Made by a program: the position numbers and the translations under genes. A DNA stretch of 62,900 nucleotides, filler included, from Collodictyon triciliatum (taxonomy: Eukaryota): NCBI GenBank assembly GCA_043381765.1. It is 6 parts of 6 records of this genome, joined end to end, with 100 filler letters (N's around TTAATTAATTAA, not from the genome) between each part and the next. Parts side by side here need not be neighbours in the genome. Positions count along the whole stretch, not along the records: positions 43,292 to 54,486 come from JBHJMP010002460.1; 5 more parts are not named here. The stretch is one strand, 5' to 3'. The notes under the pieces were generated by a model, which saw only the letters and a program-made list of their open reading frames with translations, was not told the origin of the DNA and made no database searches. Shown one piece after another: positions 18,083-54,586 of this stretch (the stretch's first letter is position 1; each line of letters starts with the position of its first letter).

Positions 18083-19191
18083 ATGAACTCAAACTCTGCG
18101 CTCGTCCTTGTGGCCCTGCTCGTAGCCTCCGCCCTTTTCGCCTCCGCTGCCCCGCAACCAGAGCGCCGCCTCATTCAGTGGAGCGAGGATCCTGCCTCTC
18201 GCGAGTGGCTGACACTGCCCGAGGTCATTCCTCCACACGTCCTCACTCGCTTTCCCCCATTCTTTTCTTTTCTTTTCTTTTCTTTTCTTTTCTTTTCTTT
18301 TCTTTTCTTTTCTTTTCTTTTCTTTTTCTCTCTTCTTTTATTTTCTTTTTCTTTTTCTTTTTCTTTTTCTTTTTCTTTTTCTTTTTCTTTTTCTTTTTCT
18401 CTTTTTCTTTTCTCTTTTACTTATGTCTCGTCATGCTGGAAGCGAAGTATTCACGTCCCTCTCAAGTCCTCCCCATATCATCAACCCCTTTTTTATGGTG
18501 TTAATGATTTCTTCTTCGTTTTTCGACCCGCAGCTGGAGGAGCGCATAGCTAAGCTCCATGAAAAGAAGGGCCTTGGACTCGGCTTCATGGATGTCACCG
18601 ACTCACTTGTAAGACATACTCACCTCAGCTTTGCTGCTTTTTTATTATTACTTATTTCTCTGCTATAGTGGCACTCTGTTTCTTTTGCATGAAACATACA
18701 CCCACGCATATGCATTCATTCCGAAGGCAGACGCTCATCTACCAAGACCTTCTCATAAAAAAAAAAAAACATGACGTTGTATAGGAACCGGTTCCAGCGG
18801 GACTAAGTGTGGATGCAATCCCCACACAACCATCGAAGCAGGTACAAAGTCATGATATGATGAGATTAAAGGAAAGATAAGAGGGACATATATAGAGTTA
18901 AAGTAGGGGTAACGGCAGACTATTTAATTATCTAATGTGTTTGTATGGACAAGGCTATTGTGAACCCTCTGCTTGGGAAAGTTAGCAGCACCAACCTGAA
19001 GGATACTGTGACCAAGCTATCTTCTTATTTCAATAGGCAATTCATCTTTTTTTTGTATAACACATATATAGGCAATCAATTTTTCCTCGGAAATGATTGA
19101 CTTTGAAAGTCAGTATCGAAATAACATCTATCATTCATCGCCTTGTAATGTAAGATATTACCTCACTGCCACTGGAGCTGAATCAGCCAAC
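18083..19191 (+). CDS. Secreted M28-family leucyl aminopeptidase precursor (5' part; truncated by an N gap)
   Basis: Signal peptide MNSNSALVLVALLVASALFASA, propeptide RLIQWSEDPASREWLT...GFMDVTD, then IVNPLLGKVSSTNLKDTVTKLSSYFNRYYLTATGAESA. This is typical of the LAP1/M28E N-terminus. Confidence 0.85.
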
Positions 19192-20359: not shown

Positions 20360-20510
20360 GAGAACATTTTCTGCTCGTTTACTTCTGGCTATAAGAAGTA
20401 TATCAATCTTTCGAAAAAAAAACTTGGTGCGCTAGTATCCAAGGTCTCACCACTTTTTTCACAGGTTGTGTAGTGGTGAAGGCTGCCAGGAAAGACCCAA
20501 AAGCCTGATT
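20360..20510 (-). ncRNA. Candidate Fanzor omegaRNA scaffold, copy A
   Basis: Lies 3' of RuvC-III and is shared with copy B. Stems: TCACCACT/AGTGGTGA (20447-20479), CTTGG/CCAAG (20423-20443), TACTTCT/AGAAGTA (20380-20400). Confidence 0.55.
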
Positions 20511-22082
20511 TTTTAGAGAAAGGTGTAGGCATATTTTGTAGGATTAAAAGAACTTTCGTGAGTATATTTTTAGCGCTGTTAAAGTCCCTATCAAGAATAC
20601 ACTTTGTTTGCTTTCTGAGCGATTACATTCTTTACATATGAGACATCTATACACTTTTTTTTATATTTCCTTTCGGTGTCATATATTCCAGTTCTTTTTC
20701 GCAGTTGCAGCACATCTTGGAGGTTTTTAATTCATATACACTGTTTCAAAACGTTTGGATTGTATTTTTCGTAATCATCTTCCGATTGTTTGCATAAAAT
20801 GCTTCACCTGAGATTTTCTGCTCCAGTCTCCATACGCCAGAACAACATCATTGCCAAATGTCTTTTCGATTCGGTCCATAAACAACTGTTCACTTCATTT
20901 TGTATTAACATACTGTCTTCACCTCATCTTTCGAAAAGTCAATTGTTCATAAAATCTGGATAATTCTATCTGGTATTTTGATTTCATAGATACATATTCT
21001 CGAAATTGTTCATAATCGACCGTGCATGAATTATGTTTACTCAGTTCTGTCTCTAAATCGATTAAAGATGCTCTTGATGTCTCAAACCGCTGATTCTCTT
21101 CAAAAGTCCTGACCAAAAGAAACAGCACTTTGTAAATATGTTGTCATCCATATCCCTGAAGCATTGTACTTTTTTTTTTCTCGCGCATGAGTATTTTTTG
21201 ATTTTTAAGAGATTTGCTGTCATGTCTTGTTTGGTGTGCCGTGTAGCGTAATTTCTTACCTGTCTCATCCACCATGTAAACCAAATTAAACTTGCCTGCA
21301 TCTACTCCAACTACATTTTTTTTTTGTCGCTAATAGAGATAACTGCTCTTCGGAAAGTTCATCAATATAAACATATTCTTGGTGGGGTTTTTTTTTATTA
21401 TACTTGGGTTTAGAATTTTGAAATACCTTTCTTTTCTAACAATAATGACATCGCCAAGGCGTGTGTTTGTATCATGTATTTAAAATTCTAGTATCTTTGA
21501 TGAAATATCCTCTTCTTCATTTCAAAGAACTTATCCCATAGGGTCTCTTCGAATCCATATATATTCTTCAGTAATGATGTTTTTCCAGTTGATACTAATA
21601 AATTTATCAAACATGCAGTATCTAGAGCAATATGACATGATATTGTGAGTTCTTATAGGGATTGGTTGAAACAGTTAAGTTGCAATGTCCTCAAAAAATG
21701 CGATTCATGTAAATCAAACATGGTGTGTACTTCTTTGGATTAACTTTGATGTCATATTCGATGCCATTTACCATATCGCTGGGAATGATATGATGCATAT
21801 GCGTTGTAGCCCATTCTTTATATTGTTCCGGTATTTCGAGTTTCTTGAAGATGGCTTCTTTTTTTTTTTTTTAACTTTCGTAACTCTGCCTTTTTAGTAG
21901 CTTCCGTAATATTCTCATCTTTAGGAACTGTTTGATTTAATAAACGCAGTAATATCTTTACAGAATGTTTGTTAATGTTATTATGATAAGCTGTTAACAT
22001 TTGCTTCGCCAAGTATAGTAATACATGAGACAGTCTAACGACGGAAAGCGTTCTTCTCGGGACAAAAGGAATCGAAAACCAT

Positions 22083-22145
22083 AGAGATAAAAAGTCATCA
22101 TTTTTTTTTTCCTTTATTCGATTCAAAGAGATAAAAAGTCATCAT
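22083..22145 (-). mobile_element. Micro retro-insertion (25 nt) with perfect 19-bp TSD inside Fanzor copy A
   Basis: AGAGATAAAAAGTCATCAT [T9-CCTTTATTCGATTCAA] AGAGATAAAAAGTCATCAT. The homologous position in copy B (about 52021-52045) is single-copy and empty. Confidence 0.9.
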
Positions 22146-22458
22146 GTCATCTCTCAAACCTGGTTTTTAATCTTGCTGGTCTATCTTGTGAAACTATTCC
22201 GACTGTCTTTAAAGCGTACAAAAAACGATTCATGGATTGTTGGGAGTTGTTGTGATTTCAATACGTAATATCTTGCAAACATATAAGTGTCAGTAACCGA
22301 ATTATGACACAGTAAAACCGTATCGTTGATTTTCGTGATAGTCGTCCGGATTCTTTACAATCGACTTTAGAGATGTTTTCACATTTAGATAGTGTGGTTT
22401 TATGAATTTTAGATTCTTAGACTCAAGGCTTTTCTTTTCTTCATGTGAAAGTCTTTGT

Positions 22459-22529
<71 letters not shown>

Positions 22530-22629
22530 NNNNNNNNNNNNNNNNNNNNNNNNNNNNNNNNNNNNNNNNNNNNTTAATTAATTAANNNNNNNNNNNNNNN
22601 NNNNNNNNNNNNNNNNNNNNNNNNNNNNN

Positions 22630-30960: not shown

Positions 30961-32057
30961 AGCACATGAGTAATGCTCAGAATAATTACATAAGATACTC
31001 AATAAGTGATTCGTCTGTTCTCAAATTCTACTTATCAACATTATTCTCATATCCGCTCTCATAAACACCCACTTCCAAACGAAAAAGTACAAGCGATTAG
31101 CATCATAATAGCTTCCCGAATGAATGAATACAGATGATTGCTACCCTTTTTTGAATATAGTGGATGAAGAGAATAAAAAATCACAAATAAACTGAAACTT
31201 ACCAGCAAATACCTATAAAGGTTTCATTTTTCCAGTTTTTTGAGGATGATTACATATACACAAGTCACAAGCTTAACAATTATGATGTGTTGATTATCCA
31301 TAGACTACTGGGACTCTATGCTTTATTGGATTTCCCATTTTATTTTTCATTTTCATTTTTTTCACCGTGGTTACAAGTTGAAATATCAGCTTCAATAACA
31401 CAATGCCGTTTATTTTCCTTTTTGCATAATGGTGGGCTGTAACACTACATGCACTCGTTTTGTACGCCTTTATTATGTCTTATAATTTATCATAAATTGA
31501 CAGGCAGTCTGTTCACATCCTTGAATGATTTCATGAAAACTTGTTGAATCTGCAGTTGTTATCGCTGTTGTTCTTGGGTGAAGTTTTTGGTGTTTTTTGC
31601 ATCGTTTGTGTCGTTTTTATAGTCACAGTTCGGTTCGGTTCGCTTTATTCTTTAGGCAATAACCCATTCACTAAAATTTTAAGTCTTGATATATAATTCT
31701 CTTTTCTTCTTTTCTTCTCCTTTTCTTCTCCTTTTCTTCTCCTTTTCTTCTCTATTTTTCTATTTCATTCTCATTGTTTTTATTGTTTTTATTGTTTTTA
31801 TTGTTTTTATTGTTTTTATTGTTTTTATTGTTTTTATTGTTTTTATTGTTTTTATTGTTTTTATTGTTTTTATTGTTTTTATTGTTTTTANNNNNNNNNN
31901 NNNNNNNNNNNNNNNNNNNNNNNNNNNNNNNNNNTTAATTAATTAANNNNNNNNNNNNNNNNNNNNNNNNNNNNNNNNNNNNNNNNNNNNGAATATGTAT
32001 GTGCACTATCTGCCGGGTCAATATTATCTCTATCTATCTTTTTTTTTTTTTGACAAC

Positions 32058-42991: not shown

Positions 42992-43676
42992 GCGAAGCTT
43001 TCGAGGTGGTCGAGCTGGCCAATCGGCGGGAGATCGAACGACGCCGAAAGATTCTCAAGATCACACGCGAGGTACTCTCTTGAGTTTTTTTCTTTCCTTT
43101 TTCTTTTCTTTTCTTTTCTTTTCTTTTCTTTTCTTTTCTTTTCTTTTCTTTTCTTTTCTTTTCTTTTCTTTTCTTTTCTTTTCTTTTCTTTNNNNNNNNN
43201 NNNNNNNNNNNNNNNNNNNNNNNNNNNNNNNNNNNTTAATTAATTAANNNNNNNNNNNNNNNNNNNNNNNNNNNNNNNNNNNNNNNNNNNNAAAAGAAGA
43301 GAAAAGAAGAGAAAAGAAGAGAAAAGAAGAGAAAAGAAGAGAAAAGAAGAGAAAAGAAGAGAAAAGAAAAGAAAAGAAAAGAAAAGAAAAAGAAAAAGAA
43401 AAAGAAAAAGAAAACAGAGAAAATAGAGAAGAGGAAAAAGACGAGCACTTCCTGAAGTACGTTGATTATTATTATTATTGCTTTTAAAAATTTCCTCAGA
43501 AAACGAAGTAAAAAATAAGGTCAAAACCAAAAAACCAAAAAAAAAACAAAAAAACAAAAAAACAAAAAAACAAAATCAGGAACTTAGTCCGACAGAAAAA
43601 AAAAACACCTCTTAGAGGCCGTATCCTTTATTCCAACGGAGGCTAAAACCCCCTTCACGACGGTAAAGAGTGTAGA

Positions 43677-51243: not shown

Positions 51244-51685
51244 ATTCCTATAATCAATTTATATTTTATTTTTCATTTATGTAATAGTACTATTAAAATT
51301 CAAATCCAAAAATTACAAACAAGCCCTTGCGTTGGCTCAGACAGAACCTTCCCTATAAACCTGCCACCAAACATGTATTCCAAAAAAGCATACTATCCAC
51401 ACTTGCGGCGGTAATCATGTTGTTTGGGGCCGATATGTTGACTTTCAGTCCCAAGGGCTATACAGCCGTCCTTTCGAACTGGCCGAATCGGCTCTCGGCG
51501 TTTTGTCTCAAATCACTTGTAAAAAAAAAACTTTGTGTGTTTGTTTGCCACAATGCACAGATTTTGAGAGTCTCGGTAGATGCTTAATTTTACATAAATC
51601 GATTTTGTGCAGTTTTCTTATTTATGTATTAAATTGACTGATTGACTAAAGTCTTATTAATATTGAAAAACTCGGTATTTTTCTA

Positions 51686-53760
51686 AACGAAAAAGTAAAA
51701 CAAAGGCTATCAGACGAAGAAAAGAAAACGTCTTGAGTCTGATAATCTAAAGTCTGTAAAACCACACTATCGAAATGTGAAAATATCTCTTAAGTCGATT
51801 GTAAAAAATCCGGATGACTATGACAAATTCAACGATACGGTTTTATTGTGTCATAATTTGGTTACCAACACTTATATGTTTGCAAGATGTTACACATTGA
51901 AATCACAACAACTCCAAACAATATATGAAATGTTTTCTTTTTGTACGCTTTAAAGATGGTCGGAATAGTTTCACAAGATAGACCCGCAAGTTTAAAAAAC
52001 CAGGAATGAGAGATGAGTAAAGACATGATAGCTTTTTATCTCAATGATTTTCGATTCATTTTGTCCCTAGAAGAACGCTTTCCGTTGGTAGGACTGTCTC
52101 ATGTACTACTGTACTTGGCGAAGCAAATGTTAACAGCTTATCATAGTAACATTAAGGAACATTTTGTAAAGAGGTTACTGCGCTTTATAAATCAAACAGT
52201 TCCTGAAGATGAGAATATGACGAAAGCCATTAAAAAGGCAGAGTTACCAAAGTTAAAAAAAAAAGTCATCTTCAAGAATCTCGAAATACCGGAACAATAT
52301 AAAGAATGGGCTACAACGCATTTGAATCATATTATTCCCAGCTGTATTGTAAAAGGTATCGAATGTGACGTTAAAGTCAATCCAAATAAGTACATTTGTG
52401 TCTGATTTACATGAATCGCATTTTTTGAGGACATTGGAGCCAAACTGGTTCAACCAATCTCTATAAGAACTAACAATATAACATGTTATATTAACCTGGA
52501 TACTGCATGTTTGATATATCTATTAGTATTATCTGGAAATTTGTCATAACTGAAGAATATATTAGGATGCAAAGAGACCCTATGGGATAACTTTGAAATG
52601 AAAAAGATGGTCTTTAATCAAAGAGACTACAATTTTAAATACATGATACAAACAGACGGCTTGGCAGTGACATCGTTGTTTGAAAAGAAAGGTTTTTCAA
52701 ATTCAAAAATAAATCAAAAAAACCCAAAAATATGTTTATATAGATGAACTTTCCGAAGAGCTGTTATCTTTATTAGCGAAAAAAAAAATAGTTGGAGTGG
52801 GCGCAGGCATGTTTAATTTTGTTTACATGGTGGATGAGACAGGTAAGAAATTACATTACACGGCACACAAAGAAGATATGATAGCAAATCTCTTGAAAAT
52901 CACAAAATACTCATGCGTGAGAAAAAAAAATTCAATTATTTGGGGATATAGATGGCAACAGATTTACAAAGTGCTATTTTTTTTATTTTTTTTTTGTCGC
53001 ATGACTTTTGAAGAGAATCGGTAGTTTGAGACATCAAGAGTATATTTAATCGATTTAGAGACAGAACTGAGTAAACATAATTCATGCACAGTCGATTATG
53101 AAAAAATTCTAGAATATGTATCTATAAAATCAAGAAACCAGATAGAATTTTCCAGATTTTATGAACACGTAACTTTTCGAAAGATGATATGGAGACAGTA
53201 TGTTAATACAAAAAGTGAACAGTTGCTTATGGACCGAATCGAAAGGACATTTGGCAAGGATTTTGTACTGGCGTATGGAGACTGGAGCAGAAAATCCCCA
53301 GATGAAACATTTTATGCCAACAATCGGAAGAGGATTACGAAAACTACTATCCAAAAGTTTTGAAACAGTTATTGTAGATGAATTTAGAACCTCCAAAATG
53401 TGCTGTAACTGCGAAAAGGAACTGGAATGTATGAAGCCGAAAGGAAATTCAAAAAAAAAAAGTTGTTTAGATGTCTCATATGTAAAGAATGCAATCGCTC
53501 AGAAAGCAAACAAGGTGTATTCTTGACAACGGACTTCAACAGCGCTAAAAATATAATCAACAAAGTTCTTTCAATTCTTCAAAATATGCATACACCTTTT
53601 AAAAAACATGCTGTCGGGTCTTTCCTGTCAGCCTTCGCCACTGTGCTATCTTTGTGAAAAAAGTGATGAGACCTCGGATGCTAGCGGACGAAGTTTGCCA
53701 CTCGAAAGATTGGTTTGCTCTTCCAAGTAAATGAATATATCGAAATTGTGTTAATTCGGC
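51686..53760 (+). mobile_element. Fanzor1-like (TnpB-derived) element, copy B, near full-length but frameshifted
   Basis: VKISLKSIVKNP...NDTVLLCHNLVTNTYMF; YLAKQMLTAYHSNIKEHFVKRLLRFIN; YMIQTDGLAV; RuvC-I IVGV(G)AG with Asp replaced by Gly; LETELSKHNSCTVDY; LAYGDWS; MPTIGRGLRKLL; IVDEFRTSKMCCNC...CKEC; DFNSAKNI. The coding span of about 1.95 kb implies roughly 640 aa. Confidence 0.9.
53605..53760 (+). ncRNA. Candidate Fanzor omegaRNA scaffold, copy B
   Basis: Aligns with copy A 20360-20510. Contains a GAAA-tetraloop hairpin CCACTC-GAAA-GATTGG (53698-53713), TTTGCT/AGTAAA (53714-53731) and the GGTCT/AGACC pairing (53617-53621 with 53669-53673). Confidence 0.55.
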
Positions 53761-54284
53761 TTGTGAGTTCCATAAATAGTGCTTCAAATATTTTATTTAC
53801 ATTGCGTTTTTTCTTCTTTCTCTTTTTCCTTTTCTTTTTCTTTTTCTTCTCGAGACTTGGTATTTTCTCCACGTGTCTTCTCATGTTTTGGGCCGACAGA
53901 AGGACACTAAAGTTGTCTTTTGTGCCTGTGGCAGTCACAAGCACCTCAGAGTGATGAAAACCAACCCATGCTAAAGGCAGTTTCCCATCTCGTTTGTCCC
54001 ACCAAACTTGTGTACGGTTGCCTACCCAAAGGGCGGGTTGGGCGTGCGAGATGGAAAGAGCGAGTGCGGGATGCCATGCCACAGGATTGTGCTTGTGCGC
54101 AATCGCTATGATCCTGTCTTTTACCTTGCACATCTGACACTGAAGATGTTGTATCGCCTCATGCTGGCCAGGAAAAGATAGGAAACTCGGCTGAAAGGAA
54201 GTAGATAAGGCAAAAGTTCTGGCGATCATACTCACAAACAAACAAAAAAAACACTAGCTTTTATTTATTTGTTTGTTTGTCTAT

Positions 54285-54331
<47 letters not shown>

Positions 54332-54586
54332 CTTATTTACTTATTTACTTATTTGCTTATTTACTTATTTGCTTATTTACTTATTTTTTATTTGTTTGTT
54401 TATTATTTGTTTGTTTATTATTTGTTTGTTTATTATTTGTTTGTTTATTATTTGTTTGTTTATTATTTGTTTGTTTATTATTTGTTNNNNNNNNNNNNNN
54501 NNNNNNNNNNNNNNNNNNNNNNNNNNNNNNTTAATTAATTAANNNNNNNNNNNNNNNNNNNNNNNNNNNNNNNNNNNNNNNNNNNN

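Follow-up and report, generated by a model that had tools for sequence, protein, structure and literature searches.

A candidate omegaRNA scaffold at the right end of two decayed Fanzor1 elements in a Collodictyon triciliatum assembly

The guide RNA (omegaRNA) of a Fanzor nuclease raises the question of where a genomic element keeps its scaffold, and what is left of it once the element decays. This question was addressed for two copies of a Fanzor1 element found in one window, that is, the whole stretch of 62,900 nucleotides (nt), filler included, taken from the Collodictyon triciliatum assembly GCA_043381765.1. The 3' stretch of the element lies at 53605-53712 in one copy (copy B) and at 20512-20404 in the other (copy A), and an earlier note on this DNA had proposed it as an omegaRNA scaffold. 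According to the present analysis, the stretch probably represents the eroded remains of such a scaffold. Its position, the Fanzor1 family of the gene and the scaffold seen in relatives speak for the proposal, but the window itself contains no demonstrable structure at this place.

Two decayed copies of a Fanzor1 element

A read-through translation of copy A with X at four TGA codons (P0001) was used as a query in the phmmer program and matched 1276 proteins at E ≤ 0.001. Among the intact relatives, the closest is P0156 (648 amino acids), which is 60% identical to P0001 and resembles the proteins of the solved Fanzor1 structures, namely, GtFz1 (E 2e-28, the best match), PpFz1 (E 3e-24), and SpuFz1 (8gkh, E 4e-23). 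Another relative, P0003, matches 8gkh with an E value of 9e-37. The Pfam matches of the element, OrfB_IS605 (E 0.0026) and Cas12f1-like TNB (E 0.0071), are weak but stand in the correct order. By these similarities, the element belongs to Fanzor1 (TnpB superfamily).

Exactly two copies of the element, about 2.03 kb long, are present in the window, inverted relative to each other. Comparison by blastn gave 83.7% over 2098 columns; of the 1987 bases aligned between the copies, 87.7% are identical, and a further 108 columns are gaps. Residues 2-633 of P0156 align to copy B over 51717-53618, and the alignment with copy A continues down to residue 643. The element consists of about 30 nt 5' of the open reading frame (ORF), the ORF, and then about 55 nt 3' of the stop codon. 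The 5' end of copy A meets a poly-A tract and a linker of N; the left limit of copy B is marked by five contigs with unlike sequence before 51679, and its right limit was placed at 53712 because significant similarity between the copies stops there.

Three-frame translation reveals one long gene whose reading is interrupted in each copy by frameshifts, which often fall at runs of A; TAA, TAG and TGA stops are all present in both. The position of the start codon is occupied by ATG in copy A and by ACG in copy B. The RuvC-I motif reads GVDAG in copy A (VGVDAGK) and GVGAG in copy B, which has G for the first catalytic Asp. Copy B additionally retains the recognisable motifs DEFRTSK, CCNC, CLICKEC and DFNSAKNI; in neither copy are the RuvC D-E-D triad and the CxxC...CxxC zinc finger found in one open frame. 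Copies A and B are pseudogenes of the Fanzor1 family, and the element is an ordinary, decayed member of a known Fanzor kind. Since both nuclease genes are dead, the 3' stretch is a fossil unless it is served in trans. Reassignment of stop codons was ruled out by the occurrence of all three stops together with frameshifts in both copies.

An insertion of about 35-45 residues after the RuvC-I region (52930-53025, plus strand; 21180-21090, minus strand) is specific to the lineage and absent from the giant-virus relatives. An intron was considered for it and dropped, as both the intact P0156 and the fragment P0002 read through the insertion in an open frame.

The window consists of separate contigs, each about 9-11 kb long, joined by five identical linkers, 44 N + TTAATTAATTAA + 44 N, which are spaced about 9.4-11.3 kb apart at 11214-11313, 22530-22629, 31891-31990, 43192-43291 and 54487-54586. 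The two copies lie on different contigs, so the distance between them is meaningless. The N runs of the linkers also produce spurious repeat families in a repeat scan of the window.

As for the distribution of the element, 321 and 313 contigs of the runs X6 and X8, which come from two organisms, fit it at ≥85% (85-99% likeness), many of them with internal deletions, which makes the family highly repeated in two organisms. These contigs span the whole element on both strands and are therefore uninformative on expression; none of the sources listed for the stretch is recorded as RNA. Freshwater metagenomes contain only traces of the family, and the search of prokaryote genomes found no closer DNA relatives. 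A viral scan with P0156 as the query gave no loci; with the query A9 it gave 12 loci with an identity of ≤39%. None of the 80 metagenome loci described below is more than 45% identical to the window protein. The last 76 residues of copy B, compared with proteins of 41-133 residues, gave no candidate.

The 3' scaffold of giant-virus and metagenome relatives

Among the viral contigs, 557 relatives were confirmed. The best 80 carry the gene in full length, and many of them are labelled as giant-virus genome bins. A scan of metagenomes added 80 further loci, although some of these lie on contigs that had already been found in the viral scan, e.g., L082 and L001. The proteins of these relatives are 39-45% identical to the window protein. 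In all, 143 distinct aligned rows were obtained from the giant-virus and metagenome relatives, with 65 viral 3' ends and 76 distinct metagenome sequences out of 80.

The relatives share a pattern at their 3' ends that starts inside the ORF, 3-4 codons past RPxxF. Its 5' part consists of (C)GTCTT-TCAC, a variable hairpin, (G)AAAAAGT(A/T), AAGAC, CATC, and a hairpin that contains the stop codon. The 3' part consists of TATTGATTTTACAyyTTTT, a T-rich spacer, a hairpin, GTTTTAAATG, and AAAAGGTGTAA. The whole scaffold is about 145 nt long and runs about 100 nt beyond the stop codon to a fixed ...GGTGTAA, past which the flanks differ in all of the distinct sequences shown (66/66).

A structure was drawn by hand on a MAFFT alignment of the 65 distinct viral 3' ends. 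In this alignment, 86.4% of cells pair, versus 46-52% with slid partners, and the covariation score is 0.315 versus ≤ 0.128, a score reached by none of 500 shuffles. The RNAalifold program alone recovers two of the helices, with eight of nine pairs changed on both sides. The closing helix GUCU/AGAC also occurs as GCCU/AGGC, GACC/GGUC, GUUC/GAAC, and GUCC/GGAC. The many U-G/C-G alternations point to RNA of the sense strand. Single folds of the relatives gave z-scores of -4.59, -5.53 and -4.97, with 0 of 200 shuffles as good.

A covariance model of the relatives' scaffold (R1) scored 51-155 bits at the expected place in 78 of the 80 metagenome loci; the two loci that it missed break off shortly after the protein match. 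In the metagenome matches, whose alignment is fitted to the model, 94.2% of cells pair, versus 46-56% with slid partners, and 20 of 29 pairs are changed on both sides. That the relatives carry a real omegaRNA-like scaffold at the same position as the window stretch is strongly supported.

Several other features of the relatives were observed. A search of three of the loci against Rfam returned tRNAs only and no family on the scaffold. Two matches to the 3' half of the scaffold alone (model positions 81-142; 32.4 bits, E 8.5e-4) were found on the minus strand at L137:240-295 and L143:1013-1068, about 2 kb from a full Fanzor locus, which is on the opposite strand; such solo matches may represent "ghost" ends that have no gene. 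Extra GC-rich hairpins of up to about 45 nt occur within the 3' hairpin region at L039:4757-4947, L121:2400-2563 and L095:3204-3354, and the 3' halves of the scaffold look mosaic between the clades of relatives. In the P0003 clade (P0003-like tails; 3' ends of L001 and L081-L083), the ORF reads on through the scaffold, and the conserved peptide GLT.T...EKVGQSVDFTVGKAT is the translation of the conserved RNA motifs GACCTTCAC and GAGAAAGTTGGTCAATC.GTTGATTTTAC; in this clade, the sequence of the protein tail seems to be imposed by the RNA. A quick look at the 400 nt upstream of the ORF for a left end gave nothing consistent, with unrelated matches at 4 of 12 loci. Four tRNA genes are located at L001:1289-1602 (minus strand), 1.4 kb upstream of the Fanzor1 gene of this 254-kb giant-virus contig.

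The window stretch and its rival explanations

In the window, the candidate scaffold begins about 50 nt 3' of the RuvC-III motif and is composed of the last ~17 codons of the nuclease gene and about 55 non-coding bases. The similarity between the two copies extends beyond the last catalytic motif, DFNSAKNI, as the earlier note had stated, and runs through "...TCGAAAGATTG", but its significant part stops at 53712 / 20404 and not at 53760 / 20360. At this point the identity drops from 80.0% to 47%. In the tail 53712-53760, 23 of 49 aligned bases are identical, the same level as in unrelated flank, and the local alignment of the two tails was equalled or bettered by 269 of 2000 shuffles. Guides had been expected past about 53760 and below about 20360; because significant similarity ends at 53712 / 20404, a guide, if any, would instead begin near 53713 / 20403 rather than at 53761 / 20359.

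Comparison with the relatives' scaffold shows a number of common features. The motif GGGTCTTTC lies 5 codons after ...PF in the window; its counterpart in the relatives (G.CTTTC) reads (C)GTCTTTCAC or GACCTTCAC and stands 3-4 codons past RPxxF. The window sequence AAAAAAGT-GGTG-AGACC corresponds to AAAAAGT-(A/T)-AGAC(C) of the relatives and is likewise followed by a hairpin and then by ATTGAT. The place relative to RPxxF is the same, the motifs G.CTTTC, AAAAAGT..AGAC and ATTGAT stand in the same order, and the layout is repeated as well, from the closing helix with its inner hairpin and a 3' bulge rich in A to the second hairpin. In contrast to the relatives, the window has about 12 extra bases after GTCTTTC and 4 before AGAC. 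A descriptor of the shared features matched 136 of 160 loci and, in 125.8 kb, only copy A, with 0.23 matches per shuffled window; since it was defined after both sequence sets had been seen, its nominal rarity overstates the evidence. Copy B misses the descriptor through one A>G change. A targeted alignment of copy A to R2, a second scaffold model described below, also preserves all three helices, at a score of 7.2 bits (E 0.12). The window stretch and the relatives' scaffold are linked by ordered short motifs and a similar layout only, short of a formal demonstration that they are the same. A window DNA pattern of 15 specified bases was also searched in the viral contigs, and its 63 matches, none extending beyond about 21 bases, correspond to chance.

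The series of hairpins described in the earlier note was only partly recovered. Its 10-bp first stem exists solely as a chimera of the two copies: the real stem (hairpin 1) has 9 of 10 pairs in copy A, three of them G-U, and 8 of 10 in copy B, and has no counterpart in the giant-virus and metagenome relatives. The second stem, TCACCACT/AGTGGTGA, is indeed perfect in copy A, but copy B has one wobble and one mismatch. In copy A it forms a 7-8-bp helix, TCACCAC(T)/(A)GTGGTGA, which encloses a CACA/TGTG hairpin and a bulge of six A (hairpin 2). Hairpin 3 occupies the place of the relatives' hairpin P3. The stem CCA(C)TC-GAAA-GATTGG occurs in one copy only, and TACTTCT/AGAAGTA is restricted to copy A and lies past the end of significant similarity, so it is flank sequence. 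Hairpins 1-3 do appear in the minimum-energy fold of copy A, but this fold is no better than those of shuffled sequences.

The complementarity of GGTCT and AGACC, invariant in the two copies, was confirmed (20497-93 and 20447-43 in copy A, minus strand), but the pseudoknot built on it was not. The consensus fold of A and B in RNAalifold makes a nested helix of 11 pairs, GGGUCUUUCCU / AG.UG.UGAGACCU, around UUCRC/GUGAA, and in the relatives GUCUU/AAGAC is a nested closing helix with compensatory variants. In addition, two bases of GGTCT also belong to the top of the stem of hairpin 1, and the segment takes up the 5-nt loop of this hairpin; the two pairings are therefore mutually exclusive. Two helix mappings can be drawn for the window, with either GGUCU/AGACC as the closing helix (consensus fold) or UCACCAC/GUGGUGA in this role and CACA/UGUG inside (alignment to R2, a model of the relatives' 5' domain only, built on 23 diverse sequences). 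Both helices can also be stacked as one with a 12-13-nt bulge, and the proposed pseudoknot vanishes in every nested version. The omegaRNA of ISDra2 TnpB has its scaffold from the gene's 3' end and the element's right end and its guide from the flank. This RNA does contain a pseudoknot, which was the source of the idea; in the window, by contrast, none is supported.

If the stretch was a scaffold, the following arrangement can be proposed for the ancestral element when it was active. Toward its 3' end, the Fanzor transcript would have formed a closing helix that enclosed a small hairpin with a bulge rich in A; the corresponding sequences of copy A would be GGUCU...AGACC and/or UCACCAC/GUGGUGA around CACA/UGUG. 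A second hairpin, CUUGG/CCAAG, would have come next, and then a short linker ending in ...GAUUG. The transcript would have extended some 15-20 bases into the flank, these bases serving as the guide, and the nuclease, bound to the scaffold, would have cleaved guide-matching DNA flanked by a target-adjacent motif (TAM).

Such an arrangement agrees with the known systems. Fanzor and TnpB guide RNAs derive from the ORF 3' end and the element right end, and some Fanzor omegaRNAs overlap the ORF (PMC10432273, PMC10530073). The scaffold of the relatives, which overlaps the ORF end and terminates at the right end, has the appearance of a Fanzor omegaRNA as published for GtFz1, SpuFz1 and ApmFz2 (PMC10432273, PMC10530073, PMC11423790). 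For Fz1 omegaRNAs, the published description gives 75-150 nt with a 7-bp first stem-loop (SL1) plus a variable part (Xu et al. 2024, PMC11423790); the word pseudoknot has 0 occurrences in a text search of this structure paper. The candidate, with about 78-96 nt and two stem-loops, would fall within the Fz1 range. UCACCAC/GUGGUGA, a possible counterpart of SL1, has 7 bp in copy A but a wobble and a mismatch in copy B, and P2 of the relatives has 7 pairs.

A close parallel is the Spu-1 element of Spizellomyces punctatus (Saito et al. 2023, PMC10432273), which is described as an element of about 2.1 kb with a Fanzor1 gene only, whose right end gives the SpuFz1 omegaRNA with a 75-nt scaffold, two stem-loops and a 14-15-nt guide from the flank. 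Unlike the window element, in which none were found, Spu-1 has 30-nt inverted repeats, and its scaffold lies wholly 3' of the stop codon, whereas about half of the window candidate is inside the ORF (PMC10432273). The SpuFz1 RNA was demonstrated by small-RNA sequencing and pull-down (PMC10432273), while the window candidate, with its dead genes, is known from sequence. In the case of GtFz1 of Guillardia theta, the omegaRNA overlaps the last 17 ORF codons and SL1 has 7 bp (PMC10432273, PMC11423790), but this RNA is 150 nt long with four stem-loops, compared with about 95 nt and two or three in the window candidate (PMC11423790).

The most serious rival of the scaffold reading, unlikely but deserving full consideration, is that the element has no RNA feature at this place: the stretch would be a weakly constrained C-terminal coding tail with a short 3' untranslated end and chance stems. 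The fold tests weigh on this side, being within chance for A, for B and for the pair. Single-copy folds gave z-scores of -0.86 (38 of 200 shuffles as good), -1.30 (18/200), -1.35 (18/200) and -0.27 (74/200), and the cores gave -0.01 and +1.23. The consensus of the two copies in RNAalifold has z -1.94 (42 of 1000 column shuffles as good), and its sub-regions -0.46 (298/1000) and -1.03 (146/1000). Variable columns are rarer at paired positions (2/32 versus 10/31, Fisher p 0.011), but when the control was limited to the 460 column shuffles that retained no fewer than 80% of the number of paired columns, 62 of them showed avoidance just as strong, so it largely mirrors how the structure was picked. 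Two consensus pairs differ on both sides between A and B, both of them long-range and in the weakly aligned 3' part. The RNA fold of the present-day stretch is indistinguishable from chance. Folding no better than shuffled controls had been named beforehand as an outcome that would speak against a scaffold, and this is what the present-day sequences of both copies show. No structure was demonstrable in the window itself by the single-copy, pair and column-shuffle tests. A stable structure backed by covariation was not found in the folds of A and B or in their consensus, a failure that a decayed fossil would share; the comparison rests on two dead copies, too few for covariation.

The covariance models are on the same side. 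With R1, the whole window at E ≤ 10 contained no match on either 3' end, and targeted searches gave 0.1 bits (E 2.5) on the sense strand of copy B and 2.5 bits (E 0.84) on copy A, whereas relatives with comparable identity to the window protein (40-45%) score 51-79 bits. With R2, there was no match at the 3' ends in the whole window and nothing useful in a targeted search of copy B; in copy A all three helices are kept at 7.2 bits, which is not significant (E 0.12). Comparison of the 3' region with the 80 viral loci by blastn gave chance-level matches only, and Rfam gave no match on the stretch at E ≤ 10. The stretch also diverges faster than the gene (84/105 bases identical, or 80.0%, versus 1611/1825, or 88.3%; Fisher p 0.02), which goes further than the caveat of the earlier note that similarity here is not clearly higher than in the rest of the element. 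Moreover, hairpin P4, GTTTTAAATG and the final helix with its GGTGTAA end, that is, the entire 3' half of the scaffold as it occurs in the relatives, are missing from the window, which has about 55 nt after the stop codon versus about 100 nt. In the runs X6 and X8, contig depth declines over the last 200 bases: it is about 250-400 at first, drops to 55/17, 16/0 and 0 in the three terminal bins, and no contig reaches beyond 53738. Finally, the tail is coding in the intact P0156 (LFKKQAVGYSSTALTVTHKRMRM), with FKK.AVG in common, and the ORF of this relative crosses hairpin 1 and enters hairpin 2; this may fit an ORF-overlapping scaffold and plain coding sequence equally well.

Against a mere coding tail stands the fact that this is where the omegaRNA is encoded in all Fanzor and TnpB systems characterised so far. 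The relatives carry a strongly covarying scaffold here, and the common motifs occur in the same order at the same distance from ...PF. In addition, the lineage with the intact P0156 must encode a guide RNA, and the element offers only about 30 nt before the ORF and about 55 nt after it.

A second rival, distinctly improbable, is that the stretch is mainly a DNA-level signal of the right end, i.e., a binding or hairpin site for a transposase acting in trans, kept for mobility. The element has the Fanzor ORF only, and without a transposase of its own it needs end signals. Four contigs in two runs join upstream sequence to 53598-53610; these would be internally deleted copies that retain this end, which is also a weak hint in favor of a scaffold. 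However, no terminal inverted repeat beyond A-rich low complexity was found between the left and right ends of A or B, a result that also counts against the scaffold reading. The inverted-repeat score was equalled by 209 of 500 shuffles for copy A and by 3 of 500 for copy B, but in the latter case the match is outside the A/B similarity. Pairing in the relatives uses many G-U pairs, workable only in sense-strand RNA. A signal of this kind is, moreover, compatible with a scaffold role, as the SpuFz1 omegaRNA spans the 3' inverted repeat (PMC10432273).

The exact model of the earlier note (four or five serial hairpins, a pseudoknot, a scaffold to about 53760 / 20360 and guides beyond) is very improbable, since, although GGTCT/AGACC is present and invariant and hairpins 1-3 appear in copy A, the GGTCT pairing is incompatible with hairpin 1, its equivalent in the relatives is nested, each of the last two stems is confined to one copy, one of them in the flank, and the folds lend no support.

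If the eroded-scaffold reading is correct, the element would be one more decayed case of the published Fanzor design, in which the guide RNA at the right end overlaps the gene end. It would also add an Fz1 lineage that resides in eukaryotes and of which at least one relative, P0156, is intact and a possible compact nuclease. A bolder version, which we regard as improbable, is that this lineage (A, B, the intact P0156 and the fragment P0002) has a short omegaRNA of its own: about 95 nt, half of it in the ORF, with three stacked helices and a 12-13-nt bulge, one further hairpin, an end at ...GAUUG and no inverted repeat. Such a class would be unseen by models of giant-virus scaffolds, and the hundreds of copies in two organisms would include guide-only deletion derivatives that retain this end. 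A by-product of the analysis is the large and diverse giant-virus and lake-metagenome Fz1 set with its covarying scaffold of about 145 nt, against which the guide RNAs of other Fanzor loci can be annotated. A caution also follows: stems drawn from two related dead copies, with the better allele chosen from each, can convince and yet fail shuffled controls.

Coordinates and further observations

The positions of the element copies and of the features of their 3' ends are given in Table 1.

Table 1. Element copies and features of their 3' ends, numbered along the whole window.
Feature	Position	Strand	Basis
Copy B, decayed Fanzor1 element, about 2.03 kb	51680-53712	+	Alignment with copy A and P0156
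Copy A, decayed Fanzor1 element	20404-22468 (22468-20404)	-	blastn versus copy B
RuvC-III motif DFNSAKNI, last catalytic motif	53532-53555	+	Translation; aligns with RDxNSAxNI of relatives
Candidate eroded omegaRNA scaffold, copy B	53605-53712	+	80.0% identical to copy A; fold z -0.27; unmatched by R1 and R2
Candidate eroded omegaRNA scaffold, copy A (better kept)	20404-20512	-	Three-hairpin minimum-energy fold, z -1.35; R2 7.2 bits, E 0.12; descriptor match
Hairpin 1 (TGCTGTCGGG / TCTTT / CCTGTCAGCC)	53609-53633	+	8/10 pairs in copy B, 9/10 in copy A; within coding tail
GGTCT (53617-21) ... AGACC (53669-73), probable nested closing helix around inner hairpin	53617-53673	+	Invariant; consensus fold
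Hairpin 2 (TCGCCACT ... AGTGATGA)	53635-53669	+	Folds; R2 places region on P1/P2 of relatives' model
Stop codon TGA of copy B's last frame	53655-53657	+	Translation; P0156 tail FKKQAVG... aligns with copy B FKKHAVG...
Hairpin 3 (CTTGG...CCAAG in copy A)	53673-53693	+	Copy B pairs only in a register shifted by one base
Flank, membership of element not supported	53713-53760	+	23/49 aligned bases same as in copy A

The best match of both R1 and R2 in the window is located elsewhere, at 19015/19072-19118 on the minus strand (14.6 bits, E 0.56 and 1.2). The sequence at 19015-19118 reads GACTT-TCA-AAGTC, AATC, a hairpin TTTCC-GA-GGAAA, and ATTGATT, and resembles the core of the relatives' scaffold except that the inner hairpin is missing. 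It shares strand and contig with copy A, is located 1.3 kb beyond the right end of that copy, and adjoins a gap of 453 N. As a scaffold this sequence was rejected, as the match is not significant and no Fanzor remnant stands beside it.

The GC content of the window, taken per 2 kb, is 29-51%, and simple repeats are plentiful, which gives it a eukaryotic look. The only Rfam match at the gathering score in the window is one tRNA gene at 10187-10259 on the plus strand (65 bits).

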